Positions 7,209-62,614 of a stretch of 64,000 nt of DNA are shown in pieces (position 1 is the stretch's first letter; every line of letters begins with the position of its first letter). The stretch is from Candidatus Levybacteria bacterium RIFCSPLOWO2_02_FULL_37_18 (GTDB taxonomy: Bacteria > Patescibacteriota > Microgenomatia > Levybacterales > UBA12049): positions 28,869-92,868 of the forward strand of contig MFPD01000011.1 in assembly GCA_001784115.1 (NCBI GenBank). Reading direction: 5' to 3'. The notes below the pieces were generated by a model. The model did not search any database. It was given only the letters and a program-made list of their open reading frames with translations, and was not told the origin of the DNA. The position numbers and the translations under genes are program-made.

Positions 7209-7236
7209 TTGTCTGGAATTGTGTTCGTGCTATAAT
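7209..7236 (+). promoter_or_regulatory. Candidate sigma70-type promoter with extended -10 (TGcTATAAT) for alaS; start codon only ~7 nt downstream (possible leaderless mRNA)
   Basis: tgcTATAAT at 7228-7236, weak -35 ttgtct at 7209-7214 (16-bp spacer). alaS ATG at 7243. Confidence 0.4.
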
Positions 7237-7242
7237 CTTTCT

Positions 7243-8655
7243 ATGACGGCAAAAGATATTATTGATACCTACATTTCTTTTTTCGAAGAAAGAGGACACA
7301 AAAAAATTGAAAATTCTCCGCTTGTATTGCAAAATGATCCGACAACTCTTTTCACAAGTGCCGGCATGCAGCCCTTAGTGCCATATTTGCTGGGAAAAGA
7401 ACATCCAGAAGGAAAAAGATTGGTAAATGTACAAAACTGTTTTCGCGCTCAGGATATTGATGAAGTCGGAGACAACAGACATACTACGTTTTTTAGAATG
7501 CTTGGCAATTGGAGTCTTGGGGATTATTTTAAAAAAGAAGAAGTTTCCTGGTTTTGGGAATTCTTAACCCAAAAGCTTACTATTCCAAAAGAACGGTTAT
7601 ACATAACAGTATTTAAAGGAACAAATGAAATTCCAAAAGACGAAGAAGCAGAGCAAGTTTGGAAAGAAATAATTCTACAGGAAGGAATGAATCCGAAAGA
7701 ACGGATTCTTTATTACGGTACAAAAAAAAATTGGTGGTCGCGCTCCGGAGTTCCGGAAAATATGCCTGCCGGAGAACCGGGAGGACCGGACACTGAAGTT
7801 TTTTATCGATTTAATATAGAGCATAATCCTGCTTTTGGAGATGTGTGCCACCCAAATTGCGACTGTGGCCGATTTATGGAAATTGCAAACTCAGTATTTA
7901 TGCAGTATGTTAAGCAGGAAAATGGATCATTCAAAGAGCTTCCTAAAAAAAATGTAGATTTTGGCGGAGGACTCGAAAGACTTCTTGCAGCAGTTGAAAA
8001 TATGCAGGACGTATTCCAAACCTCTCTTTTTGCTCCCATAGTTGCCGGAATTTCCCATGCAATTAACAAACCGTATTCTGAAGAATCAAAAGAAATTCGA
8101 ATTATTGCCGACCATTTTATTTCTGCCTGTTTTATTGCAGCAAATGACGTAATACCTTCTAATAAAGAACAAGGATATATTTTAAGAAGATTAATCAGAA
8201 GAGGACTTGACAGTTTTTATCAGCTGCAGGGAGGAAATCTTTCAGAGATTATCGAAACTATTGTTGATCAATATAAGAATACCGATCAGATTCTTTTAAC
8301 TAAGTTTGAACATATTAAGAACACAATTCTTGCCGAAGAAAATAGCTACAGTCAAACACGAAGAAACGCAAGGAAACTTATTACCAGAAAATATCCTTCG
8401 GCAAGCCATTCGGCCCGAGTTCAGGCCGAGGGCTTGGGGCAAGCAAGAATTGGAGATGAATTAAAAGGACAGGTTGAAATCTCGACAGAAGACGCTTTTG
8501 TGTTGTATACAGCTCACGGTCTTTCTCCTGCTCAAATTAAAAGCCTCGGGTTTTTGTTTAATGAGGATGAATTTGTACAAAAAATGAAAGAACACCAGCA
8601 GCGCTCAAAAATGTCAGGTACAAAAAAATTCGACAGAGTCAAAGAAATTAGGTAA
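7243..8655 (+). CDS. alaS: Alanyl-tRNA synthetase, catalytic/tRNA-recognition fragment only (no editing or C-Ala domain)
   Basis: MTAKDIIDTYISFFEERGHKKIENSPLVLQNDPTTLFTSAGMQPL aligns with the E. coli AlaRS N-terminus ([22 protein letters not shown]...NDPTLLFTNAGM). The C-terminal end ...FVLYTAHGLSPAQIKSLGF...EHQQRS matches E. coli ~400-460 (FRLYDTYGFPVDL...EAAMEEQRRRA). The stop immediately follows. Confidence 0.85.
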   Translation: MTAKDIIDTYISFFEERGHKKIENSPLVLQNDPTTLFTSAGMQPLVPYLLGKEHPEGKRLVNVQNCFRAQDIDEVGDNRHTTFFRMLGNWSLGDYFKKEEVSWFWEFLTQKLTIPKERLYITVFKGTNEIPKDEEAEQVWKEIILQEGMNPKERILYYGTKKNWWSRSGVPENMPAGEPGGPDTEVFYRFNIEHNPAFGDVCHPNCDCGRFMEIANSVFMQYVKQENGSFKELPKKNVDFGGGLERLLAAVENMQDVFQTSLFAPIVAGISHAINKPYSEESKEIRIIADHFISACFIAANDVIPSNKEQGYILRRLIRRGLDSFYQLQGGNLSEIIETIVDQYKNTDQILLTKFEHIKNTILAEENSYSQTRRNARKLITRKYPSASHSARVQAEGLGQARIGDELKGQVEISTEDAFVLYTAHGLSPAQIKSLGFLFNEDEFVQKMKEHQQRSKMSGTKKFDRVKEIR

Positions 8656-8664
8656 TATATACCT

Positions 8665-11010
8665 ATGCCTATTTCCCTGCCTTTTTTCAAAAAAAAAGAA
8701 GAGCCTAAATACTTTTTAGTACTGCTTTTAAGAGGAGAAAAAGTCCACGCCGTACTCCTTGAGGAATTGGATGGGAAAATAAAAATACTCGAAAAATCCC
8801 AAGAGTTTTTTCAAAGTTCAATTGAAGACACAAGCGAAGAAGAATTATTAACAGTACTCGATAAAGCCATAACCAATGTAGAATCCACTCTTCCTCTTGA
8901 TTTCCCTACTCACCAAACTGTTTTTGGAGTAAAAGAAAACTGGGTGCTTGATGGGAAAATAAAAAAACAATACCTTAGCAAACTTAAAAGAATCTGCGAT
9001 GAATTAGGTCTTGCTCCAATTGGATTTTTAGTTATCCACGAAGCAATCGGACACTTGATGAAAAAAGAGGAAGGAGCACCTGTATCAACACTTCTAGTTG
9101 AAACCGGTAAGCGATCTTTAATTGTTTCTTTAATAAAAGCAGGAAGAATACTCGAAACAAAAAGCGCTCCGGTTAAAGGATCATATGCTTATACCGTAGA
9201 TACACTTTTAAAAGAATTTGCTACAAGCGAAATCTTGCCTTCTCGAATTACTATTTTTAACGACGACAAAAATGAAGATGTGCTAATGCAGGAATTTATC
9301 GGACACACATGGAGCAAAAGCCTTCCTTTCTTACATGTTCCTCAAATTACAACTCTTTCTAAAGATTTTGGCATATATGCAATTATAACTGCCTCTGCTC
9401 AGCAAATGGGCTTTGAGGTTTTAGAAACAGAAAATGAAGTTGAAATCCACCAACAACTAGAGACTGCAGAGGTTCGTAAACCAGCAATAGAATCAGAAAA
9501 AGAAACCGAAGGCTACCAACCACAAAATGAGGTTCAAAGTGTTAAGGAAAGCCAAAGTTTAGAACGAGAACAAGCAGAAGAGATAGAAAAAGGAGAACAA
9601 GCAGACAACAAAGAAGCTTTATATCCGAAAGAGGACGTATTCCAAAAATTCGGATTCTACAAAGACACAGACATCGCTAAAATTTCAAAAGAAGAAGTTA
9701 TTCCACCCGAACCAATGGCGTCTCAAGAAGAATCATCTGCGCATAAACAATCCTCAAATTCATTTTTATACACGGCCATTTTAATACTCTCAAAAGGAAA
9801 ACACGTTCTTTCTCATACATTTCATACGCATATTAAACATCGTATAAAAAAACCCCGTATTTCTTTTACCATGCCTAAGGGAAAATTTGTTTTGCCGGTA
9901 TTCATAACAATTCTTTTGTTACTAGGAGCAATCCTATTGTATATTTTTGGTATAAAAGCGATTGTCACCTTGACAATCGAACCAAAAGTTATTAAACAAA
10001 CCCAAGACGTCGTATTCGTAAATACGTCTTCTGACTTCTCTAAGAATACTATTGCTGCTGATTTTATTACCATATCAGAAGAAGGATCGGTATCCGAAAC
10101 TATTACAGGCAAAAGAGAAGTCGGAGAAAAAGCCAAAGGATCGGTTACGTTGTACAGCAGATTTACCCAAGATAAAACTCTTCCTTCTGACACAACAATT
10201 ACTTCTTCAAACGGATTGCAGTTTGTATTTGATGATGATACAAAGCTTGCTTCAGCTTCTGCTGGCGCAAGTGCCTCTCCATCAACTACAAAAGCAAATG
10301 TAACGGCAAAACAAATTGGCAAAGAATCTAATCTTCCTTCTGGAACTAAATTTTCTGTTTCATCGTTTGACATATCAGATATAGAGGCAAAAAACGACAG
10401 CGCATTCTCGGGCGGATCGAAAAAAGAAATAACCGCAGTATCAAAAAATGATTTACAAAAAGCTCTAGACGATTTACCAAAACAACTCGAACAAAAAGCC
10501 AAAGAGGACCTTTCTAAAAAGGTATCAAAAGACCAAGCTATTCTTCCTTCCTTTATCTCAACCACTGTGGGTAAAAAAGATTTTGATAAAAAAGAAGGAG
10601 AAGAAGCAAAATCTCTAATACTTAAAGGAACCGTAGACTATAAAGCAATCGCATACAAGAGAAGTGATTTTATTCTTTACGCAACACGTATTCTTTCAAA
10701 CAGCTTTCCCAGCAATTTTTCCATTTCTCAAAATAATCTAAAAGAAACCGTTAAAAGCATTAAGCAAAAAAATGGTTCGGAAGTTTTATCAACCCTGGAA
10801 ATCCAAGCGTTTTTAGTATCTAAATTAGATATGGAAAATATGAAAAAAAACATTACCGGAAAGACGTTTTTGCAAGCAGAGGATCTTTTATTAAAACTTC
10901 CGCAAGTTTCTGATGTAAGAATTATTCTTTCTCCCAATGTGTCATTTTTACCCAAGTTCCTGCCCCGAATTTCTAAGAATATAGAAATTCGGACGAAAGT
11001 AAATGACTAA
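8665..11010 (+). CDS. Actin-fold (FtsA/PilM-like ASKHA) N-terminal domain + E/Q-rich linker + single TM + large extracytoplasmic domain; hypothetical
   Basis: N-terminal ~270 aa show ASKHA-like blocks (KYFLVLLLRGEKVHAVL; CDELGLAPIGFLVIHEAIG; LLVETGKRSLIVSLIKAGRILE...GSYAYTVD) resembling FtsA phosphate-1/phosphate-2 (…VDIGGGTTDIAV…) but degenerate. TM segment FVLPVFITILLLLGAILLYIFGI at ~aa 415-440, followed by a ~340-aa Ser/Thr-rich domain. The next gene is a sortase. Confidence 0.45.
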   Translation: MPISLPFFKKKEEPKYFLVLLLRGEKVHAVLLEELDGKIKILEKSQEFFQSSIEDTSEEELLTVLDKAITNVESTLPLDFPTHQTVFGVKENWVLDGKIKKQYLSKLKRICDELGLAPIGFLVIHEAIGHLMKKEEGAPVSTLLVETGKRSLIVSLIKAGRILETKSAPVKGSYAYTVDTLLKEFATSEILPSRITIFNDDKNEDVLMQEFIGHTWSKSLPFLHVPQITTLSKDFGIYAIITASAQQMGFEVLETENEVEIHQQLETAEVRKPAIESEKETEGYQPQNEVQSVKESQSLEREQAEEIEKGEQADNKEALYPKEDVFQKFGFYKDTDIAKISKEEVIPPEPMASQEESSAHKQSSNSFLYTAILILSKGKHVLSHTFHTHIKHRIKKPRISFTMPKGKFVLPVFITILLLLGAILLYIFGIKAIVTLTIEPKVIKQTQDVVFVNTSSDFSKNTIAADFITISEEGSVSETITGKREVGEKAKGSVTLYSRFTQDKTLPSDTTITSSNGLQFVFDDDTKLASASAGASASPSTTKANVTAKQIGKESNLPSGTKFSVSSFDISDIEAKNDSAFSGGSKKEITAVSKNDLQKALDDLPKQLEQKAKEDLSKKVSKDQAILPSFISTTVGKKDFDKKEGEEAKSLILKGTVDYKAIAYKRSDFILYATRILSNSFPSNFSISQNNLKETVKSIKQKNGSEVLSTLEIQAFLVSKLDMENMKKNITGKTFLQAEDLLLKLPQVSDVRIILSPNVSFLPKFLPRISKNIEIRTKVND

Positions 11011-11704
11011 GCTTTACTATAAAAAATCTAACAAAAAAAATCTAAAGATTATAATCCGTATTGTTTCAATCGGAATATTTCTTGCCGGATTATATGTTCT
11101 TTCGTATGTATTCCTTCCTATATACTCATGGCATATATATTTTGCGCCAGTATTCGCTGCTCAAAATGTAAACTACCCAATTCCTAAATTATTACTTCTT
11201 ACTCCAACAAGTAATACGTCTATTGATACAAAATATCTTGACGCAAAAAATTGGTTTCCTACACTTTCCACGACAGATACTGCTCCAAAAATTTCATCCT
11301 ATACTCTCTCTATTCCAAAACTATCTATTAAAAATGCGCTTGTTTCTACAATTAACAATGATCTCTCAAAACACTTAGTCCATTACCAAGGAACCGCGCT
11401 TCCACCAGACAATGGAAACGCAGTTATTTTTGGTCATTCAACATTGCCGCAATTATTTAATCCAAAAGATTATACAACTATCTTTGCTAGAGCTTATACT
11501 CTTTCTAACTACGATAAAATTATTTTACAAATGCAAGGCATTACCTATACATATAGTATATATAACACGACTGTTGTTAATCCAACTGATACTTCTCCGT
11601 TTAACCAAGACTATGCTTTTAGTCACCTCACGCTTGTTACCTGTACACCTCCAGGAACAACATGGAAACGCTTAATCATAAAGGCAAAAATTGAGAATTT
11701 GTAA
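11003..11704 (+). CDS. Sortase family transpeptidase (membrane-anchored)
   Basis: N-terminal TM anchor. Conserved His (AVIFGHST), catalytic Cys in TLVTCTPPG and downstream Arg (WKRLII), in sortase order. Confidence 0.75.
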   Translation: MTKLYYKKSNKKNLKIIIRIVSIGIFLAGLYVLSYVFLPIYSWHIYFAPVFAAQNVNYPIPKLLLLTPTSNTSIDTKYLDAKNWFPTLSTTDTAPKISSYTLSIPKLSIKNALVSTINNDLSKHLVHYQGTALPPDNGNAVIFGHSTLPQLFNPKDYTTIFARAYTLSNYDKIILQMQGITYTYSIYNTTVVNPTDTSPFNQDYAFSHLTLVTCTPPGTTWKRLIIKAKIENL

Positions 11705-14134: not shown

Positions 14135-14560
14135 TTAATTGATCCGTCTTTTAGGCACTCCGCGGAAGAATCGTTTGGTTTTTTTCTCAAAATTTTCAGT
14201 TACTTTTGCTGCTGTCTCTGCGACATCAGCAGCGTTTGACGCGGCTTTTGCTGCTGTTTGGGCTAATCCACTTACTTTAGAAAGACTTGTTGTGGTAATT
14301 TTTTCAATCGCCGATTCAACCTGCGGTATTGTTTCTTTTACTTTCGAACGAATAACTTGTGATGGTTTAACTTCATCCTCAAGTAAAAAATCCTCCAAGT
14401 CAGAAATTCCTTCGATGCCTTCTTCTGTTAATGTTTTTAACAACCGTTTGCCTTTTTTTGTGCCGAATAAAAATACTCCCACTCCTCCTAAAATAGCTCC
14501 CAATAAAAATCCATTGCCAAATGCGTTTGAATTATGATTGTCGTGATTATTATTACTCAT
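14135..14560 (-). CDS. YtxH-like membrane protein (general stress/DUF948-neighbour family)
   Basis: GFLLGAILGGVGVFLFGTKKGKRL N-terminal helix, then an A/K/E-rich coiled region typical of YtxH. Confidence 0.55.
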   Translation of the reverse strand: MSNNNHDNHNSNAFGNGFLLGAILGGVGVFLFGTKKGKRLLKTLTEEGIEGISDLEDFLLEDEVKPSQVIRSKVKETIPQVESAIEKITTTSLSKVSGLAQTAAKAASNAADVAETAAKVTENFEKKTKRFFRGVPKRRIN

Positions 14561-14831
14561 GTTTTGATTTACCTGCCTTTCTTTTAAAAAAACGCGCTAG
14601 TAAATTTCCTACTTTTACTCCTTCAGAAAGAGCTGAAAATGAAAATAAAGAAGATAAAGGGGAAGAAACTGTCTGGGAAATTACTCCGGCATCGTCTAAT
14701 ATTTTATTTGCTTTTTTTACTGTTCTTCGTAATTCCCGAAGTATTAAAAATACCTGAACACCTAAAATAGCCAAAAGGATTGTGAGTACTGAAATAACTA
14801 TCAAAAGTATAATCTGAGCAGCATCCGCCAT
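14553..14831 (-). CDS. DUF948-like small membrane protein
   Basis: N-terminal TM (IILLIVISVLTILLAILGVQVFLIL) followed by RELRRTVKKANKILDDAGVIS, typical of DUF948/YtxG-like proteins. Confidence 0.5.
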   Translation of the reverse strand: MADAAQIILLIVISVLTILLAILGVQVFLILRELRRTVKKANKILDDAGVISQTVSSPLSSLFSFSALSEGVKVGNLLARFFKRKAGKSKHE

Positions 14832-17606: not shown

Positions 17607-18239
17607 TTACTTTACCTCCACGTGTCTCTCGATTTTTGTTTCTTTGCCGAATCGATTTACAGCCCGAATTACGATTATTGACTTACCTAAGAATACGTCA
17701 ACTGTTTTTTTAAACATTCCCTTTTCTTCCAAAAATACAGCATTATTATTAATATACACTGTTACATTGGAATCTGTTTTGCCAATAATTTGCACAGATG
17801 AACCGTTAAGCACTACTCCTTCTTTTGGACTTGTTACTTCAAGCGGTGGAGCTAAAAATGCGTACCGATTTTGATAAAAAATATAAGTTACCAACAATAG
17901 TAACAATATAACAATAGTAACAATTGTCCGACTTAACCTTGTTCTATGAATAGAAAAATCCTGTCTTCCTACAAGACCTTCAGGTAAAACTCTATATATT
18001 TTTTCTTCATCAAATTCCCTTCTAAAAAGAGCCATGGTTTCTTTTTCCGGAAGTCCAAGATATTCAATATAATTACGAACAAATCCCTGGGCGTATGCTC
18101 GTGACGGAAGTTTGTTATATTCCCCTTTTTCTATTGCGGAAAGAAATTGAGGTTTAATTTTTATTGCCTTTGATACATCTTCCAAGGTTAAACCTTTTTT
18201 ACTGCGTGCGTCAAAAAGAATCTGACCAACATGAATCAT
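17607..18239 (-). CDS. rodZ: RodZ-like protein (XRE-type HTH + TM + periplasmic domain)
   Basis: HTH (GQILFDARSKKGLTLEDVSKAIKIKPQFLSAIEKGEY), single TM (IVTIVILLLLLVTYIF) and C-terminal beta-rich domain. Start likely at MIHVG (complement of 18237-18239). Confidence 0.6.
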   Translation of the reverse strand: MIHVGQILFDARSKKGLTLEDVSKAIKIKPQFLSAIEKGEYNKLPSRAYAQGFVRNYIEYLGLPEKETMALFRREFDEEKIYRVLPEGLVGRQDFSIHRTRLSRTIVTIVILLLLLVTYIFYQNRYAFLAPPLEVTSPKEGVVLNGSSVQIIGKTDSNVTVYINNNAVFLEEKGMFKKTVDVFLGKSIIVIRAVNRFGKETKIERHVEVK

Positions 18240-18357
18240 AAATTCAAAAATCAAAAGGCAAAATTTCAATTCAAAATGCAAAAGTAAAGATTGTTTAGAA
18301 CTGGATTTTGACTTTTTACTTTCACTTCTGAATTTTGACCTTTGACTTTTGACTTAA

Positions 18358-26299: not shown

Positions 26300-27217
26300 T
26301 TATACTATGGTTGATCCTTTATAGATTTTAGGAGCAAGCCAATCTGGCGGAGCCTCCTTTTTCTTTTCCTGTTCTATCTCTTCTATGCTACTGGCTGGAA
26401 GTTTCTGTTGAGTTTGTTTATTCGGTTGAGCAGAAGGTCTGGGTCCAAAAAACGGATCATACGTTCCTCCAAAATCACCTTTTGGTAATACTTGTCTGAC
26501 AGCTCCTTTCTTCATAAGAAGTGCTGCCATTTCGAAGGCGACAGTGGAAGTTTTCGGATTGCCAAAATTATTTGTAGCGCTTGAAATTCCGGAGAGGAGA
26601 TTTTGAGCTTCGTCAATACCAAATTCTAAGGGTAAAGAAGACAAAAGTGTTGCAATCTGCTCAGAAACTGAAGAAAAATTAGGCGACACCAACACCACGT
26701 CGCCAAATCCTTGATTTTGAGTATTGTTGTCAATATTGACTACCGTTGTGTCTTTTAAGCTCTCCGTATCAAATAACTTACCTAAATCAGAAAGTCGTGG
26801 TGTACCGATAACAAATAAGATTTTTGCAGGAGATATACCTCGTTTATACCGTATTTCTTGCTCAGAAAAAGTAAGTCCGACTTCTCCAGCCTTAACAACT
26901 ATATTAAGGTATCCATCTTCAAGGGTATACGAAACTTTTTCTATTTCTCCTTCTTTATACGGAAAAGAAACAATCAGATCTCCCGTGCTACCGTTTAAAT
27001 CTGTTTTTACCCTATCAATTCCTACGAGTGTTGAAACTTCAACCAAGGGTGAAGTTGGAGAAGCAATGACAACCTGCTTTCCCATTTTTTCTAAAGATAA
27101 AGCTAAGGATAGAGCGGCAGCCATTGTGTCAAGTGTTGGATTTTGACCAACCGCAATAGCTATTTTGTCATTTTTGGACAGAAGATCACGAATTTTTGCA
27201 AACGTAGGGTTGTCCAT
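26300..27217 (-). CDS. DHH-phosphoesterase-family-like protein with degenerate catalytic motifs (at the rbfA/truB position of the nusA-infB-rpsO-pnp cluster)
   Basis: IAIAVGQNPTLDTMAAALSLALSLEKMGKQVVI resembles the NrnA-type motif (I.IxxHxNPDGDxxGSxLAL...GK.V), but His/Asp residues are replaced (Q, TLD). Confidence 0.4.
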   Translation of the reverse strand: MDNPTFAKIRDLLSKNDKIAIAVGQNPTLDTMAAALSLALSLEKMGKQVVIASPTSPLVEVSTLVGIDRVKTDLNGSTGDLIVSFPYKEGEIEKVSYTLEDGYLNIVVKAGEVGLTFSEQEIRYKRGISPAKILFVIGTPRLSDLGKLFDTESLKDTTVVNIDNNTQNQGFGDVVLVSPNFSSVSEQIATLLSSLPLEFGIDEAQNLLSGISSATNNFGNPKTSTVAFEMAALLMKKGAVRQVLPKGDFGGTYDPFFGPRPSAQPNKQTQQKLPASSIEEIEQEKKKEAPPDWLAPKIYKGSTIV

Positions 27218-49569: not shown

Positions 49570-49643
49570 TAACCTATAGTTAAAATAGCACTCAGGAAGC
49601 TTGACACTGTTTTATTTTGCCTATACTATGATATTAGTACCTA

Positions 49644-50812
49644 TGCAACGAAACAAATTTTTAATTGGGGGCATTATTGCTGTTTTGTTGATTACTATTC
49701 CCTTAACGGTCTTTTTACTTGGGCAACAGCAACAAACTCAAACCAAAGCAACACCTGCAACCACACTCTCTTTAGCGCTATCTAATCCCTCTCAAACAGT
49801 TACTGTAGGGCAAGACTTTGGTGTTGATATTAATATCAATCCAGGAAGCAATCAAGTTTCGTATGTAAAAGTGACAATTAATTTTGATGAAACAAAACTA
49901 GCAACCTCAGGAGCAGGATTTGAACCAAGTGCTTCTTTTCCTACCACACTTGAAGGCCCTATATTTACTTCAAACTCGTTTACTGTTGGTCTTTCAATTG
50001 GGGCTGATTACACAAAAGCAGTACAAACACCCGGAAAAGTAGGAAAACTAACATTCCGTGCCAAAGCACTAACCAATGGCACCCAACAACTTGCCAGCTT
50101 TGATACAGGGCAACAAAAAACACTGGTTCTTTCTATTGCAAGCAGCCAAGATAATTATAACGAAAATGTTTTATTGCCAAATCCCGCACCTCTTTCTTTA
50201 GCTATCTCAGCAGGACCAACCGGAACACCCGGGCCAACAGCACCAACCCAAGCACCAACCTGCAGCAACTTAAAAATCGATAGGGTAGCAAGCGGTAATA
50301 CGCCGTTTTCTATTACATTTACCGCTGATGGAAGCGATCCTGACGGGACAATTTTTAGGGTATCTTTTGACTTTGGAGATGGACCAAGTCAAGATGAAAC
50401 TGCCGGCGGTGGCATTGGAACCGGTACAGTAAGTGTCCCTAAATCTCATACGTATAACAATCCAGGAACGTACGAAGCCAGAGCAACCCTCTATGACAAT
50501 AATCAAAACGCAAGTTTGCCTAATACCAAGTGCACAAAAACAATAACTGTAACTCAGGGACCAACTCCCACTCCAGGATCCATTTCTGCGATTACCCCTA
50601 TTCCAACCCCGCCATTATCTGCACAACCAACTGCTATTATTCTTACCCCCACACCGCTTGCTTCTAATCCAACAACTATTGCGCAAAGACCAACTACAAC
50701 TCCACCAGGTCAACCACCGCCAAACTCTGGACCAGGAGATGCCATTCTTGTAGCCGGGGGTATTGGATTTGTCCTATCTGTAATTGGTGCGCTTTTGTTT
50801 TTTGGACTCTAG
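49644..50812 (+). CDS. PKD-domain surface protein with N-terminal signal anchor, Pro/Thr-rich stalk and C-terminal TM
   Basis: MQRNKFLIGGIIAVLLITIPLTVFLLG signal anchor. PKD-like block DGSDPDGTIFRVSFDFGDGPSQ...HTYNNPGTYEARATLYDNNQN. PT-rich stalk (TPTPGSISAITPIPTPP...TTTPPGQPPP). C-terminal hydrophobic helix. ORF-track start (49601) uses TTG; ATG at 49644 preferred. Confidence 0.6.
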
Positions 50813-56887: not shown

Positions 56888-57427
56888 ATGATTAAAAAAA
56901 CTCCAACAATAAACTTATTTACAGGAAGAAGTAAAAGCTTTATTGATAGATTTCTAAAATGGGCATTAAGCGTTGGAAGACTTATCATCATTCTAACCGA
57001 AATAATAGCCCTTTCAGCTTTTTTATATAGATTCTCTCTAGACAGACAACTTATTGATCTTAGGGACAAAATAAAATCACAACAAAAAATACTTGACTTG
57101 TATAAAAATAACGAAAAAAAATACAGAAGTCTTCAAGAAAGAATTGCATTATCTTCTCAACTTTCTACTCTAGCTGAAAAAAATACTGACACGCTCAACA
57201 AAATCAATCAAAGTATTCCAATTAATATGTCTGTAAGTAGTCTTACCTTGCAAAAAAAGAGCATGAATATAAATGCAAGTGTACCGTCAATTTCTACACT
57301 CACTTCCTTTATGAAAAAAATAAAAAGTTTTCCAGAAGTAAAAGGAACAACGCTTGAAAGAATTGATAATAGGATATCAAGCTCTACACTCGTATTTAGT
57401 TTAAATGTCTTTCTAAAAGATGAATAA
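56888..57427 (+). CDS. pilN: PilN-like type IV pilus assembly protein
   Basis: N-terminal MIKKTPTINLFTGRSK (INLLP-type motif), single TM, coiled-coil and C-terminal beta domain. ~180 aa. Confidence 0.5.
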   Translation: MIKKTPTINLFTGRSKSFIDRFLKWALSVGRLIIILTEIIALSAFLYRFSLDRQLIDLRDKIKSQQKILDLYKNNEKKYRSLQERIALSSQLSTLAEKNTDTLNKINQSIPINMSVSSLTLQKKSMNINASVPSISTLTSFMKKIKSFPEVKGTTLERIDNRISSSTLVFSLNVFLKDE

Positions 57428-58040
57428 TACAAAAATCAAAAAAAATAATTCTCTATTTCCTGTTAAGAACAAATATCTTGAGTTTCTTCCAAAAATTAAA
57501 GAAGAAAAAATACAAGTAGCAACAACTGTGGGCTTAACATTCCTTGGTATTATTTTGTTTGGTTTGTTTGCAATCAGCCCAACTCTGACAACCATTGCTC
57601 ATCTAAGAAAAAGTTTGGCTGATAATCAAGATTTATTTGCCAAATTGCAAGAGAAAAACAAAAATTTAAGTATTCTCCAGCAAAAATATTCAACCGTGGA
57701 AAAAGATATTCCTACCATTCTGTCTGCACTGCCCCAAAAACCATCGGCACCTGTCTTTCTTGGACAAATACAAACTCTTCTTGTTAGTAATCATCTTAAT
57801 TTAATAAACATTGGATCTCTTGAGGTCGAGCTTACCAAATCTGAAGAAGGCGAAAATCAGTATTCATCGTTTATTTTTAATCTGAGCGCCGATGGATCGA
57901 ATGAGAATGTGCTCACGTTTATAAATTCCTTAATACATGTCAGCAGGATCGCATCTATAGATAACATCTCTCTTGTAGAAAACTCAAAAAAAGGAAATAC
58001 ACAAGTTACAATTACTGGAAAAACGTATTTTAAAAAATAA
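57420..58040 (+). CDS. pilO: PilO-like type IV pilus assembly protein
   Basis: Short cytoplasmic N-terminus, TM, long coiled-coil (LRKSLADNQDLFAKLQEKNKNLSILQQKY) and C-terminal domain. Overlaps the pilN stop, immediately downstream of the PilN-like gene. Confidence 0.45.
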   Translation: MNNTKIKKNNSLFPVKNKYLEFLPKIKEEKIQVATTVGLTFLGIILFGLFAISPTLTTIAHLRKSLADNQDLFAKLQEKNKNLSILQQKYSTVEKDIPTILSALPQKPSAPVFLGQIQTLLVSNHLNLINIGSLEVELTKSEEGENQYSSFIFNLSADGSNENVLTFINSLIHVSRIASIDNISLVENSKKGNTQVTITGKTYFKK

Positions 58041-58042
58041 TT

Positions 58043-58339
58043 ATGAAACAAAAAGACATCTTACTTATCTTAGGCTCTCTTTGTGTAGTTACTATTGCGT
58101 GGATTATTTTTAATATTTATCATACTACTGTCACATCAACAATTCCCGAAACCATAACTACGCAAGTTAAACCAATCACACCGGATTTTGATATAAAAAG
58201 TATTGATGCGCTTAAAAAAAGACAAAAAATAACTCCAAATTTTGGTTTTCCTTCCTCTGGTACTCCTACTCCGACACCTACCCCTTTTCTCTTGCCAAAA
58301 AAGAATCAACCTGCATCTGAAAGCTCATTCCTTAGATGA
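58043..58339 (+). CDS. Small membrane-anchored protein with Thr/Pro-rich tail (pilus-cluster associated)
   Basis: 98 aa, N-terminal TM, ...GTPTPTPTPF. ATGA-overlapped with the downstream gene. Confidence 0.4.
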   Translation: MKQKDILLILGSLCVVTIAWIIFNIYHTTVTSTIPETITTQVKPITPDFDIKSIDALKKRQKITPNFGFPSSGTPTPTPTPFLLPKKNQPASESSFLR

Positions 58340-59685
58340 AAAAAAATATTTTGAGTATTCGTATTCCAACCTTGTTGGGAATTTTTTTAATACTGGTTAC
58401 TCTTGCATCAACATCGTATCTTGCAAATCAGGGTGTAATTACGATTGGAAGAGCAAGTTTAACACAAGCCCCACAAAGAGTGCGCATAACGAATGTCTCA
58501 GATACTTCATTTACGGTTTCTTATAAAACCGAGACTCCAACACTAGGATCTCTTAACACTGGAAAAGATAAAAGCTTAGGCCTTGTAATCAATGACGACA
58601 GAGATAGTCAAACCGCAAAGCCTCATGTACTTCATTACTTTACTGTAAAAAATCTTGCCCCTAACACACTATATTATTTTTCAATTGTATCCGGTGACAC
58701 TATATACACAAACAATAATACTCCTTTTACAGTGACAACGCGTGAATTAGGCGATACTACTTCTTCACCTAATTCAATGAGCGGAAAAATAATTACACAA
58801 GAAGCAACAGCCCCTCAGGAAGCAATCGTATATGTAAAAAAATCATCCGATCCCAAATCTATATCTACATTAGTAAATAATGACGGGACGTATTCTTTGG
58901 ATGTATCAAAAATTGGAATTAAAAATAATTCTTCAGACAGTCACATTCTCCAAATGCTTGTTCTTGGAGATCAAAAAGAATCAAATATTACTATTAGATC
59001 TTCTGCTATCCATCCTGTCCCAATAATTACTCTTGCCAAAGATTACGATTTTATTCAAAACGTTTTAGAACCGTCTGCGTCAACAAGCGCAAATTTTCAA
59101 TCTTTTCCCTCATTTAATTTTACCAGTAACTCTACAATACCTCAAATTATTACACCAAAAAATGAAGAAATCTTCAAAGATGCCAAACCTCAATTCTTTG
59201 GAACTGCATCTGCATCAGCCTTGGTAAAAATTACTATCCATTCTCAAGATATAATACAAGATCAAGTAAAAACAGACCCTAACGGCAGATGGTCATATCG
59301 TCCAATTCAACCTCTTTCTCCCGGAAATCATACTATTTCTATAACAACCCAGGATCAGACAGGAATTACAAAAAGTATCGAAAAAACATTTATTGTTTTT
59401 GCATCCGGAAGCCAATTTATCGAGCCTTCTGTTTCTCCTATTCCGCCTACTCCCACCTCATCACCTACAATAACCCCCACGCCTTCCATTCCCACAGCAA
59501 CACCTTTGCCTCCAACTCCTACTTCATTACTTTTGCCATCTCCAACCATAATCCCTCCTGCAAGCTCAACTACTCTTCCTCCGCCCGGAAGTTCAACTGC
59601 CTTGCTTACAGGACTTAAGGGAATTGGAATAACTCTTGCTGGCTTACTTCTTCTAATTCTCTCCCGAGGCGTTTTACATATATGA
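58336..59685 (+). CDS. Surface protein: signal anchor + Fn3-like and Ig-like domains + Pro/Thr-rich stalk + C-terminal TM
   Basis: Fn3-like RVRITNVSDTSFTVSYKTETPT...NTLYYFSIVSGD. PT-rich PTPTSSPTITPTPSIPTATPLPPTPTS. C-terminal ALLTGLKGIGITLAGLLLLILSRGVLHI is a possible non-canonical sorting signal. Confidence 0.55.
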   Translation: MKKNILSIRIPTLLGIFLILVTLASTSYLANQGVITIGRASLTQAPQRVRITNVSDTSFTVSYKTETPTLGSLNTGKDKSLGLVINDDRDSQTAKPHVLHYFTVKNLAPNTLYYFSIVSGDTIYTNNNTPFTVTTRELGDTTSSPNSMSGKIITQEATAPQEAIVYVKKSSDPKSISTLVNNDGTYSLDVSKIGIKNNSSDSHILQMLVLGDQKESNITIRSSAIHPVPIITLAKDYDFIQNVLEPSASTSANFQSFPSFNFTSNSTIPQIITPKNEEIFKDAKPQFFGTASASALVKITIHSQDIIQDQVKTDPNGRWSYRPIQPLSPGNHTISITTQDQTGITKSIEKTFIVFASGSQFIEPSVSPIPPTPTSSPTITPTPSIPTATPLPPTPTSLLLPSPTIIPPASSTTLPPPGSSTALLTGLKGIGITLAGLLLLILSRGVLHI

Positions 59686-60953
59686 AAATAGGAATAATAG
59701 GTGCAGGATTTACTGGCCTTTCTGCAGGAATTCAATTATTAAAAAAAGGTCACAGCGTTACAATTTTTGAAAAAGATAAAAATCCAGGCGGCCTTGCCTT
59801 AGGATACAAAGAAAACAAGTGGCAATGGAGTCTTGAGGAACATTATCATCATTGGTTTACGAATGATTCTTATATAGTAGCTCTTGCTAAAGAAATTAAA
59901 CACGAAGTAATAATACAAGAACCAAAAACATCTGTATATGTAGACAATACGTCTTATCAACTTGATTCTCCTATCCGCGTTCTTAGTTTTCCCAAATTAT
60001 CTTTTTTTGAAAGAGTGCAAATGGGAATTGCTTTGGGAATATTTCGTTTTAATCCTTTCTGGAAACCTCTAGAACAATTTCGTGCATCCGACGTCTTATC
60101 TAAACTAATGGGAGAAGTCCCTTATAAACTTCTTTGGGAACCATTATTGAAAAATAAATTTGGTAATTATGCCGACGATGTTTCACTTGCGTGGTTTTGG
60201 GCGCGAATTTATAAAAGGACAAAAAAGCTCGCTTATCCTAAAGGAGGTTTTCTAGAATTCGCGAATAAACTTGTTGAATATATTAACAATTTGGGCGGAA
60301 CGGTAATTTACAATTCACCAGTAGAAAATATTAAATCCAACAATGATTCCGTAAGCATAAAAACAAATAACAAATCTCAGTCTTTTGACAAAATAATTGT
60401 GACGCTGCCTTCTCAATTATTTACTAAAACTGCTTCCATTCCTTTTGAATACAAGCAAAGTTTAGAACAATTAAAAAGTTTAGGAGCGGTAAATCTTGTA
60501 TTAAGACTTAAAGAAGAGTTTTTAAAAGACGGAACGTATTGGCTGAGTATGTGCGATGCCAACATTCCGTTTTTAGCTATTATTGAACATACTCACTTCA
60601 TGGATAAAAAATCTTATAACAACGAATATATAGTATATATTGGAAAATATCTCCCTAGTAGTGATCCTTTTTTTTCAAAATCTAAAGAAGAAATATTTAA
60701 TATATATGACCCGTTTCTTGCCAAGATTACCAAAAATTATAAAAAATCTATTATCGACTATCGAGTATTTAAAGCTCCGTTTGCCCAACCAATCATCCCT
60801 ATACATTATTCAAAAGTTATGCCATCATTTAAAACTCCTTTACAGGGCGTGTACCTTGCAAACATACAACAAGTATATCCCTGGGATCGAGGAACAAATT
60901 ATGCAGTTGGATTAGGTCAAAAAATAGCCACGTTTATTGAAAACGATAGATGA
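59682..60953 (+). CDS. FAD/NAD(P)-binding oxidoreductase (amine-oxidase/phytoene-desaturase-like Rossmann)
   Basis: MKIGIIGAGFTGLSAGIQLLKKGHSVTIFEKDKNPGG (GxGxxG + acidic residue + NPGG). ATGA overlaps on both sides link it to the upstream surface-protein gene and the downstream GT-C gene. Confidence 0.65.
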   Translation: MKIGIIGAGFTGLSAGIQLLKKGHSVTIFEKDKNPGGLALGYKENKWQWSLEEHYHHWFTNDSYIVALAKEIKHEVIIQEPKTSVYVDNTSYQLDSPIRVLSFPKLSFFERVQMGIALGIFRFNPFWKPLEQFRASDVLSKLMGEVPYKLLWEPLLKNKFGNYADDVSLAWFWARIYKRTKKLAYPKGGFLEFANKLVEYINNLGGTVIYNSPVENIKSNNDSVSIKTNNKSQSFDKIIVTLPSQLFTKTASIPFEYKQSLEQLKSLGAVNLVLRLKEEFLKDGTYWLSMCDANIPFLAIIEHTHFMDKKSYNNEYIVYIGKYLPSSDPFFSKSKEEIFNIYDPFLAKITKNYKKSIIDYRVFKAPFAQPIIPIHYSKVMPSFKTPLQGVYLANIQQVYPWDRGTNYAVGLGQKIATFIENDR

Positions 60954-62614
60954 AGAAAAAAATATCCATCTTGATAGTTTTTGTATTTGCAATTGCTTTT
61001 TTATTTCGCTTTTATAATATTCTATGGGGATCACCATACTTCTTCCACCCGGATGAAAGAAATATAGCTTATGCAACTGAGAGAATCCGTTTTCCAAATC
61101 AATTAAATCCCCAGTTTTTTGCGTATGGCAGTTTTCCGATATATGTCATTTATTTTACTGGTGTTTGCTTCAATTTCTTTTCTCACTTTTTGAACATAGA
61201 AAAAAATATTAGTGATATATTTTCTGTTTCATTCGAAAATGCGATATTTTTTGGAAGATTCTACAGTGCTGTTTTTTCGTTTATTTCTATTTTTCTGACA
61301 GTAAAGATCTACAAAAAAATAAGTAATAAAACACCAGGAACAATTCTTCTCATGTGGTTACTGACAACAAGTGCGGGATTTATTCAATTTGCCCACTTTG
61401 CTACATTCGAAATGTGGCTAACATTTTTCACCCTATTGCAGTTTTATTATTTATTAAAATTTTTTGAACAAAAAAAAGTTGTTTATTTTTCTATTTCATC
61501 TGTAATTTTTGGACTGCTTCTTAGCATTAAAATTTCCTCATTAACTCTTTTTCCTATTTCTCTTTTTATAATAAAAAAAACAAAATTGAACTGGAAAAAA
61601 AATCTTGTTATTTTTTTAGTAACTGCCTTTGTAACAGGTATTCTTACCTCGCCATTTTATGTTTTGGATTTTTCTACTTTTAAATCAAACATAACATATG
61701 AATCAAATGTTGCAACCGAAACGCTTCCTGTTTTTTATTCCGGACAATTTTTTTATACAATTCCTATTCTATTCCAGCTTACAAAAGTATATCCATTTCT
61801 CATAAACCCAATGCTAACTATATTATTCATCCCTTCTCTTTTGTATGTTACCATTATTGGTTTTAAAAAAACAAAAAATTCTTATCTCTTATTGCTTTTC
61901 ACTTATCTCTTACTTTTCCTTCCGCAATCATTTTTATTTGTAAAATGGACACGTTATATGGTTCCAACTCTTCCTTTTATCTATCTTATAATTACGATTT
62001 TTCTTTCTGAACTTTTGCAAGGACTACAAAAGAAAGTTCATTACTATTATATTAGTATAATAGTAATAATAACGATAACCATAAGTATAGGTTTTGCATT
62101 TTCATATTTTCTTACAGTTTATCTTAATCCAGATACACGGATTCAAGCAAGTAGTTGGGCGAGTGAACACATACCAAAGAATGCAAAAATTCTAAGCGAG
62201 GTTTATGATTTAGGAATCATTCCTTTTAATCAATATTTCCAAAATATCCAACTCTTTAATTTTTATTATCTCGACAATACAGACACCTCGGATGGTGGCA
62301 GACTGAGCTTGCGAAGCCATGACTCCTCCGAGGTAAATGACCTAGAACAAAAACTCAGAGATTCAGATTATCTAATTCTTCCAAGCCAACGAATACTAAA
62401 AAATAGAATTACAAATAAACAAAAGTTTCCGGTTGGATTTAAATTTTATTATAAACTTCTTTCCGGAAAGCTTGGATATAAAAAAATCTACGAAACACCA
62501 TGTGATATTTTTTGTAAAATAATATACATGGGAGATCCTGTTTTTAATATCGAAGAAACAGCAAATGTTTTTGACAGACCGATGGTATTTATTTTCAAAC
62601 ATGAAAAATTATAA
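60950..62614 (+). CDS. GT-C fold membrane glycosyltransferase (GT39/PMT-like), paralog 1
   Basis: FFHPDERNIAYATERIRFPNQLNPQFFAYGSFPIY loop-1 motif, >10 TM. Confidence 0.65.
   Translation: MKKKISILIVFVFAIAFLFRFYNILWGSPYFFHPDERNIAYATERIRFPNQLNPQFFAYGSFPIYVIYFTGVCFNFFSHFLNIEKNISDIFSVSFENAIFFGRFYSAVFSFISIFLTVKIYKKISNKTPGTILLMWLLTTSAGFIQFAHFATFEMWLTFFTLLQFYYLLKFFEQKKVVYFSISSVIFGLLLSIKISSLTLFPISLFIIKKTKLNWKKNLVIFLVTAFVTGILTSPFYVLDFSTFKSNITYESNVATETLPVFYSGQFFYTIPILFQLTKVYPFLINPMLTILFIPSLLYVTIIGFKKTKNSYLLLLFTYLLLFLPQSFLFVKWTRYMVPTLPFIYLIITIFLSELLQGLQKKVHYYYISIIVIITITISIGFAFSYFLTVYLNPDTRIQASSWASEHIPKNAKILSEVYDLGIIPFNQYFQNIQLFNFYYLDNTDTSDGGRLSLRSHDSSEVNDLEQKLRDSDYLILPSQRILKNRITNKQKFPVGFKFYYKLLSGKLGYKKIYETPCDIFCKIIYMGDPVFNIEETANVFDRPMVFIFKHEKL

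Follow-up and report, generated by a model that had tools for sequence, protein, structure and literature searches.

EpsL, a membrane scaffold with an actin-like cytoplasmic domain, is not known to bind nucleotide in the canonical way. GspL/EpsL of type II secretion and BfpC are bitopic proteins in which such a domain belongs to a scaffold of an assembly platform, and GspL and BfpC set a precedent for scaffolds of this sort that have no ATPase function (PMC4471445). The product of gene X, found in a 64,000-nucleotide stretch of Levybacteria DNA that was analyzed as a whole (the window), shares the layout of GspL and BfpC, with a cytoplasmic actin-like domain, a single transmembrane (TM) helix and an extracytoplasmic domain, but has no PilN-like ferredoxin-type periplasmic domain of the kind that pairs with GspM/PilO. 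The T2SSL and GspL_C models of Pfam do not match it, and neither the window nor the flanking DNA of related loci encodes a GspE/PilB-type ATPase. The domain combination of X is new, within the known general class of bitopic actin-fold scaffolds such as GspL. Levybacteria belong to the ultra-small bacteria of the CPR. CPR bacteria (Patescibacteria) are thought to need cell-surface structures for host attachment, and most of their envelope proteins are uncharacterised. In the literature we found nothing specific on the X family, on sortase partners in Patescibacteria, or on pilM or ftsA in Levybacteria. The features of the locus are listed in the table.

Table. Features of the X–sortase locus and associated genes; positions are those of the window, aa numbers those of the encoded protein.
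Feature	Position	Strand	Description
Gene X	8665..11010	+	781 aa, one membrane pass; actin-fold domain followed by linker, TM and baseplate-J-like ectodomain
Minimal ASKHA (actin-like) core, cytoplasmic	8707..9414	+	aa 15-250; made up of subdomains 1A and 2A, lacking 1B/1C/2B inserts; degenerate nucleotide-binding motifs
Acidic E/Q-rich disordered linker	9427..9750	+	aa 255-362; variable length and sequence; pLDDT <50
Linear motif F-G-F-x4-D-[IV]-A-K in linker	9649..9681	+	aa 329-339; presumed docking peptide
Juxtamembrane amphipathic helix, then K/R-rich patch	9760..9888	+	aa ~366-387 and aa 388-408; from AlphaFold2 model and conservation
Single TM helix	9889..9957	+	aa 409-431; N-in/C-out orientation, inferred
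Extracytoplasmic domain	9958..11007	+	aa 432-781; 0 cysteines; 21% Ser+Thr; separate model, mean pLDDT 88
Baseplate_J/GlxA-type beta-barrel core	10114..10428	+	aa 484-588; invariant family motifs GKESNLPSG and NDxAFSGG
C-terminal alpha/beta modules of ectodomain	10444..11007	+	aa 594-781
Membrane-anchored sortase	11003..11704	+	233 aa; Pfam Sortase 4.2e-20; N-terminal TM
pilN-like and pilO pair	56888..58040
pilO	57420..58040
fn3/Big_13 surface protein, tentatively associated	58336..59685	+	Pfam Big_13 and fn3; C-terminal LPxTG-like signal, TM, basic tail

The two ORFs with overlapping stop and start codons, which had been described in an earlier note on this DNA, were both recovered, and so was the fusion of a cytoplasmic actin fold, a linker, a single TM helix and a large outside domain, which is real and conserved among homologs. 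The product of gene X is 100% identical to the database protein P0001, has 558 homologs in the protein collection and has relatives in 230 species-level genomes, those listed being Levybacteria-like, so that the family is not a chance ORF. An exhaustive phmmer search with the N-terminal domain found 1,187 representatives at E<=1e-3 and 196 at E<=1e-30; the best 150 matches have the length and architecture of X, except for a handful of short, apparently fragmentary ones, and the weaker ones may be either true distant relatives or fragments from short contigs. A search from the divergent member P0248 led back to the same family only, the few organism names given being Levybacteria or Patescibacteria, and in the most isolated member, P0237, the downstream gene overlaps likewise. 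Within the CPR, X seems to belong to the core genes of one lineage, the Levybacteria. The mean pLDDT of the full-length AlphaFold2 model is 78. Strong constraint acts on the two folded domains (mean column identities of 59% and 57%), and the linker varies freely outside one invariant peptide.

The Pfam and NCBIfam libraries that were searched do not detect the actin-fold domain, with no match at E<=1, the FtsA and PilM profiles included; PHROGs gave nothing relevant and a profile search of PDB sequences found no match. By structure comparison, in contrast, the nearest solved structures are FtsA and PilM, other matches including PPX/GppA, sugar kinases and Hsp70. Thus the ASKHA fold of the FtsA/PilM type proposed earlier for the N-terminal 270 aa stands on structure comparison and not on profile searches, and its extent shrinks to a core of only about 235 aa. 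In the model, aa 15-250 form an uninterrupted doubled beta3-alpha-beta-alpha-beta-alpha core and therefore leave no room for 1C or 2B inserts. The degeneracy of the nucleotide-contacting residues, noticed in the single sequence, extends over 47 sequences of the family: the phosphate-1 position of X reads LVLRNEK, without Asp or Gly; the Asp-x-Gly of phosphate-1 and the glycines of the adenosine motif are absent from all 47; and phosphate-2 varies (E, D, Q or I), with LVE[TI]GK in place of the canonical DxGGG, although the acidic E146 is mostly kept. Strictly conserved motifs are found on the surface (KEEGAPV and WSKSLPFLHxPQ), and none of the invariant residues falls within the cleft motifs. 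The loss of the Asp/Gly phosphate motifs together with the conserved surface motifs speaks for binding, not catalysis, as the role of the domain; taken alone, the absence of canonical motifs is still compatible with nucleotide binding.

The E/Q-rich linker and the single TM helix were both borne out. The linker has 32% E+Q and a net charge of -15 and aligns poorly across homologs; within it, the motif FGFxxxxD[IV], a presumed docking peptide, stands out from unalignable flanks, with G330 invariant and F329, F331 and D336 conserved in at least 90% of 45 homologs. The TM helix is strongly hydrophobic in all 45 aligned homologs (Kyte-Doolittle 2.4-3.3), and in 32 of the 45 sequences K/R residues are more frequent before it than after it, a positive-inside bias. 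Upstream of it, the earlier note had not mentioned a conserved amphipathic helix and basic patch; the segment of aa 363-408 has a net charge of +9, and its weaker hydrophobic peak and basic residues are kept in homologs. A second TM helix at this place, which would put the C-terminal domain in the cytoplasm, was rejected: the hydrophobic segment is short, interrupted by K, S, T and N, weaker than the main TM helix in every aligned sequence and followed by the basic patch, and it is therefore taken as an amphipathic interfacial helix.

The ectodomain, presented before as Ser/Thr-rich, is indeed enriched in these residues, but modestly (21%, compared with 14% in the N-terminal domain). It matches the Pfam family Baseplate_J (PF04865) with an E-value of 1.4e-8, above the gathering threshold and with the signature motifs present, the match spanning the barrel only (profile positions 17-113 of 255). 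The beta-barrel is homologous to that of the Baseplate J, Mu gp47 and T4 gp6 wedge proteins and of GlxA, with which X has the motifs GK.xNLP and N..F.GG in common; the ectodomain of X (350 aa) is also similar in size to the proteins compared (346-356 aa), yet only about 100-140 of its residues match the wedge proteins. Unlike the latter, X carries a TM anchor in the cell membrane and a cytoplasmic actin fold on the same chain.

The gene downstream of X encodes a sortase with an intact catalytic triad (H145, C214 in TLVTC, and R223), which scores 60 bits against TIGR01076 (cut-off 39.35); no model of the sortase classes A-F reaches its cut-off, the best being class C with 61.7 bits vs 160. The two ORFs overlap by 8 nt (11003-11010, AATGACTAA). 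The stop/start overlap persists in 71 of the 82 loci compared, nine others having a gap of at most 30 nt; it is conserved across proteins that are only 36-46% identical. The pair also stays intact where its neighbours have changed (loci L016, L032, L045, L085, L087 and L091), so that X and the sortase are tied more closely than the single overlap first noticed would imply. The block alaS–X–sortase–PYNP–yceG is syntenic across Levybacteria, and the housekeeping surroundings (rpoB, alaS, yceG) are syntenic in every one of the 80 species-level genome loci reaching beyond X, out of 230 genomes that have a relative. Since the whole block is syntenic, the adjacency of X and the sortase within Levybacteria is partly inherited and not independently selected. 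Judging from its C-terminal sorting signal, which is conserved in relatives and is a literal LPSTGSS in the relative at locus L090, the fn3/Big_13 protein is probably a substrate of this sortase. The fn3/Big_13 gene directly follows the pilN-like and pilO pair, and conserved PMT_2 glycosyltransferase genes adjoin it.

We tentatively favor the explanation that X is a non-enzymatic transmembrane scaffold acting with the sortase. Its gene overlaps that of the sortase, so the role of X is probably to organise the anchoring of surface proteins and not that of a missing pilus or division protein. X and the sortase would be made together and act together; at the surface of the membrane, the ectodomain may hold or position either the sortase or the LPxTG-like substrates of this enzyme, while the cytoplasmic pseudo-ATPase domain and the linker peptide may dock on a cytoplasmic landmark or self-associate. 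Anchoring of surface proteins could thereby be localised or gated from inside the cell, by analogy with GspL and with PilM-PilN, which join an assembly platform outside the cytoplasm to a partner within it. If a cytoplasmic partner is indeed coupled to sortase anchoring in this way, X would be a further actin-fold pseudo-ATPase membrane scaffold beside GspL and BfpC. To our knowledge no dedicated transmembrane organiser of a sortase has been described before, and X would, given such coupling, be the first.

The readings of X as a missing PilM and as an FtsA-like tether are both less probable than that of a scaffold for the sortase. The former had been suggested because the window holds PilN/PilO-like genes and no pilM, an observation that holds: pilO is recognized by Pfam (2e-11), its neighbour is weakly pilN-like (0.006), and neither pilM nor ftsA occurs in the window. 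X would then be a GspL-style stand-in for PilM in a type IV pilus-like envelope machine together with the orphan PilN-like and PilO proteins. In agreement with this, no pilM was found adjoining pilN-pilO in three relatives. However, X shares only the actin-like fold with PilM; it matches no PilM profile, has lost the nucleotide motifs, is itself anchored in the membrane and is not encoded with pilus genes, being 46 kb away from pilN-pilO and always situated between alaS and the sortase gene. In the model it has no 1C-type subdomain, which forms the PilN-binding groove of PilM, and would hence offer no groove for the N-terminal INLLP peptide of PilN. The PilN-like protein retains its invariant I-N-L docking peptide. 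In another genome of the Microgenomates, the main pilus locus includes a canonical PilM (PMC7143001). No prepilin genes were found in the window. Altogether we consider a PilM stand-in rather unlikely.

Also unlikely, and somewhat more so, is a derivation of X from FtsA, as a membrane tether through which the division or elongation machinery would link a cytoskeletal element to events in the cell wall outside; the sortase would then be a mere passenger of the operon. X resembles FtsA in the ASKHA fold of subdomains 1A and 2A, but matches no FtsA profile (Pfam, NCBIfam), has lost the ATP-binding motifs and has, beyond the actin fold, a genuine TM helix and an ectodomain of 350 aa. According to the model it lacks both the 1C subdomain (the SHS2 insert) and 2B, so that the surfaces by which FtsA binds FtsN and FtsZ would be missing. 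Moreover, ftsA is expressed in Patescibacteria generally (PMC9938205), so that there is no obvious need for a replacement; in the genome, X is coupled most tightly to the sortase, not to yceG or ftsK.

A broader combination seems more doubtful still, namely that X, the sortase, the PilN-like and PilO proteins and the LPxTG-like fn3/Big_13 protein form one undescribed CPR envelope machine. In it, surface fibres or adhesins would be assembled in a sortase-dependent manner on a PilMNO-like platform, X with its pseudo-ATPase actin fold and baseplate-J-type ectodomain would replace PilM, and the PMT_2 glycosyltransferases would modify the product.

That X is an active ASKHA enzyme or a nucleotide-gated transmembrane sensor, a switch similar to a kinase, a phosphatase or Hsp70, is very improbable. 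Most members of the fold family are nucleotide-dependent, PPX/GppA, sugar kinases and Hsp70 are among the structural matches, and E146 is mostly retained at phosphate-2; however, the phosphate-1 Asp-x-Gly and the adenosine glycines are missing throughout the family, phosphate-2 varies, and the invariant residues are found away from the cleft.

Finally, the Baseplate_J match could mean that X is a baseplate remnant derived from a phage or tailocin (a prophage gene, a receptor or a decoy), which is hardly credible, as the match is confined to a barrel also present in the non-phage enzyme GlxA, a tblastn search of 50,697 phage records gave no relative, genes for a tail, sheath or tube are absent from the neighbourhood of X, no PADLOC match was obtained, and the gene sits in the syntenic housekeeping block. 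Its context, the phage search and the barrel shared with GlxA led us to reject a prophage or tailocin origin, and the PADLOC result likewise a defence system. The baseplate-J beta-barrel is better regarded as a general extracytoplasmic module, common to Streptomyces GlxA, than as a prophage marker in CPR genomes. At present, members of the X family are labeled only as "hypothetical" or, misleadingly, as "baseplate J/gp47 family protein".

Gene X, which encodes a 781-aa protein, overlaps the gene of a 233-aa sortase by 8 nt (AATGACTAA). The domain architecture of X is genuine and conserved and had not been recognised before, and the function proposed for it below is putative; no published description of the family was found in literature searches. 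The window, with a GC content of about 30-42%, comes from the chromosome of a member of the Levybacteria (CPR/Patescibacteria) and contains housekeeping genes (rpoB, PNPase, FtsK, RNase J, a ClpB-type AAA+ protein, IF-2, NusA, DnaK/DnaJ/GrpE, GroEL, LepA and MurJ) and a PilO identical to a protein of 'Candidatus Levybacteria bacterium RIFCSPHIGHO2_12_FULL...'. X starts 10 nt after the end of alaS, no terminator-like sites were found on the + strand downstream of alaS, and the sortase gene is followed on the same strand by a thymidine-phosphorylase-family gene (PYNP) and yceG/mltG. The alanyl-tRNA synthetase itself has just 478 aa, ending shortly past the catalytic and tRNA-recognition part; its orthologs in related Levybacteria have 591-611 aa and a tRNA_SAD domain. 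The copy in the window is short of about 130-150 residues at the C-terminus.

Coordinates of gene X, its partner genes and other features (window positions unless a related locus, L088-L090, is named)
Feature	Position	Strand	Remarks
Alanyl-tRNA synthetase	7219-8655	+	
Gene X	8665..11010	+	ORF, 781 aa
Sortase gene	11003..11704	+	ORF, 233 aa
ORF between IF-2 gene and PNPase	26300-27217	-	304 aa; no Pfam match at E<=1e-4
PKD-domain surface protein	49601-50812	+	
Relatives of PKD-domain protein	L088 1169-2434; L089 745-1857		
pilN-pilO cluster	56888-62614	+	
fn3/Big_13 surface protein	58336..59685	+	C-terminal LPxTG-like motif, TM helix, basic tail; directly after pilN-like, pilO and small TM ORF
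Relatives of fn3/Big_13 protein	L088 9925-11292; L089 9949-11340; L090 6179-7615		

The AlphaFold2 model of X, built on a 45-sequence alignment, has two confident folded parts with a disordered stretch between them. Residues 15-250 (pLDDT ~85-93) reproduce the ASKHA core exactly, as a doubled beta3-alpha-beta-alpha-beta-alpha topology lacking 1B, 1C or 2B inserts, and their Foldseek matches are ASKHA proteins only: EutJ (7e-8), PilM (9e-8), PPX/GppA and CoaX. In the 47 sequences compared, 'LVLRNEK' occupies the phosphate-1 position, with Asp and Gly missing, and the phosphate-2 position is variable ('LVE[TI]GK'); the invariant residues of the domain stand elsewhere (D66, E73, W93, 'KEEGAPV' and 'WSKSLPFLHxPQ'). 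The linker (aa 255-362) is disordered, with 32% E+Q and a net charge of -15; homologs do not align in it outside a single motif, F-G-F-x4-D-[IV]-A-K, with G330 invariant. Ahead of the single strong TM helix, which spans aa 409-431 and was found in 45 of 45 homologs, lie an amphipathic helix (~366-387) and a basic patch (net +9 over aa 363-408); the positive-inside bias predicts a cytoplasmic N-domain and an outside C-domain.

The ectodomain (aa 432-781), modelled separately, has a mean pLDDT of 88. At aa 484-588 it passes the gathering threshold of Pfam Baseplate_J, as 30 of the 31 family members do; seven also match the GlxA beta-barrel model in the same region. The X-invariant GKESNLPSG and NDxAFSGG line up with their counterparts in diffocin TRI-2, a genuine wedge protein; only the barrel is common to X and Baseplate_J proteins. 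The last ~190 residues fold into small alpha/beta modules, for which only weak matches were obtained. The earlier note had described both ORFs, the actin-fold topology, the degenerate nucleotide-contacting residues, the E/Q-rich linker, the single TM and the large outside domain correctly. The N-domain matched no sequence profile of Pfam, NCBIfam, PHROGs or PDB, but its ASKHA similarity was recovered by structure comparison; the suggestion that the outside domain is PilN-like failed, as hhalign gave <1% against PilN and PilO.

A word-indexed search of the protein collection found 558 homologs of X at E<=1e-3; among the matches listed nearly all have 715-806 aa, and those with an organism name are Levybacteria/Patescibacteria. 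Of the 1,187 cluster representatives that an exhaustive phmmer search with the N-domain gave at E<=1e-3, only 196 reach E<=1e-30; the weaker matches could be distant relatives or short-contig fragments. When each GTDB species was represented by one genome, 230 genomes had a relative. The sortase directly follows X on the same strand in each of the 80 loci that extend far enough downstream, although the block alaS-X-srt-PYNP-yceG is itself syntenic among relatives, so that this adjacency inside the clade is not independent evidence. When the ORFs themselves are measured, the stop of X overlaps the start of the sortase in 71 of 82 loci, in most of them by the same 8 nt, and the two lie <=30 nt apart in nine more, while the X proteins are just 36-46% identical to that of the window. 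X-srt is the tightest pair of the block and holds where other junctions break: PYNP and yceG are missing downstream in L016; in L032 2 kb are inserted behind the sortase, and in L045 1.2 kb ahead of X; and in L085 and L087 the outer flanks are rearranged. Even L091, the most isolated member, retains the overlap with the downstream gene. The coupling to the sortase, from which the earlier note surmised a functional link, is stronger than the one overlap in the window would indicate.

The sortase carries a TM helix at its N-terminus, and its catalytic residues H145, C214 (TLVTC) and R223 are present; it matches general sortase models, and no class-specific model reaches its cut-off. Exactly one protein in the window, the fn3/Big_13 protein, has an LPxTG-like motif with a TM helix and then a basic tail behind it. 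Its C-terminal signal is kept in relatives (PPPGSS, SPPGNS, AKPGSS and, literally, LPSTGSS in one), and the protein is probably a substrate of this sortase, connecting the two loci. At its C-terminus the PKD-domain protein has a conserved 'PGP[GN][DN]' motif and a hydrophobic but no basic tail, which may be a second, different sorting signal.

Beyond the observed architecture, folds, motif loss, conservation pattern and gene overlap with an intact sortase, we tentatively propose that X is a non-catalytic transmembrane scaffold co-produced with the sortase. The ectodomain would engage the sortase or its substrates; the actin-fold domain and the tethered FGF peptide would bind a cytoplasmic partner or self-associate, and this would localise or gate anchoring. 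The closest likeness for such a mode of action may be GspL, BfpC and the PilM-PilN complex, GspL and BfpC being bitopic actin-fold scaffolds (PMC4471445). Judged by family features, X falls outside FtsA, PilM and GspL: it has no 1C subdomain, nucleotide motifs, profile matches or PilN-type outer domain.

It is unlikely that X is a GspL-like platform acting with the orphan PilN/PilO pair. In the window pilO was confirmed, the pilN-like gene is a weak match, and no pilM, ftsA or prepilin genes were found within the 64 kb. A canonical pilM adjacent to pilN, named by the earlier note as evidence against X as the missing PilM, was absent in the three relatives inspected (L088-L090), down to 33% PilO identity, and in the window and these relatives the pair is never beside other pilus genes. 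Several features speak against X as the missing PilM: the 1C subdomain, which makes up the PilN-binding groove, is absent from X; the PilN-like N-terminus retains the invariant I-N-L docking peptide; a related Microgenomates genome has PilM in the main pilus locus (PMC7143001); and pilus genes are never encoded beside X. The conserved cluster (Big_13 protein, amine oxidase, two PMT_2 glycosyltransferases and DUF2298, joined by an epimerase in two of the relatives inspected) may represent a non-pilus use of the PilNO module.

Slightly less probable still is an FtsA-like divisome or elongasome tether, for which the YceG, RodZ-like and FtsK neighbours speak; ftsA is expressed in Patescibacteria generally (PMC9938205). 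We infer that the N-domain is a binding domain (pseudo-ATPase) and not an enzyme, and an active nucleotide-gated sensor is improbable. Least credible is a phage or tailocin remnant, against which stand the gene context, the barrel common to X and GlxA, the lack of relatives in 50,697 phage records, and the lack of a defence-system match.

The stretches 17607-18281 and 14135-14831 (both - strand) belong to a neighbourhood in which a RodZ-like protein (HTH_25 and Glucodextran_B domains) adjoins FtsK. Between the RodZ-like gene and yceG, relatives have a gene with a weak YtxH Pfam match and an unannotated small ORF, and two small ORFs stand at the matching position of the window. In relatives all these genes are kept downstream of the X block, and they lend the region a flavour of cell envelope and division. 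Public records contain annotation errors: Levybacteria-like MAGs are often titled 'uncultured Gammaproteobacteria' (L007, L011, L012 and many others), Methylomirabilota or Lysobacterales, and one X homolog (P0304) was named 'biopolymer transport protein ExbD' by JGI. The automatic NCBI name of X homologs, 'baseplate J/gp47 family protein', hides their membrane topology and actin-fold domain.
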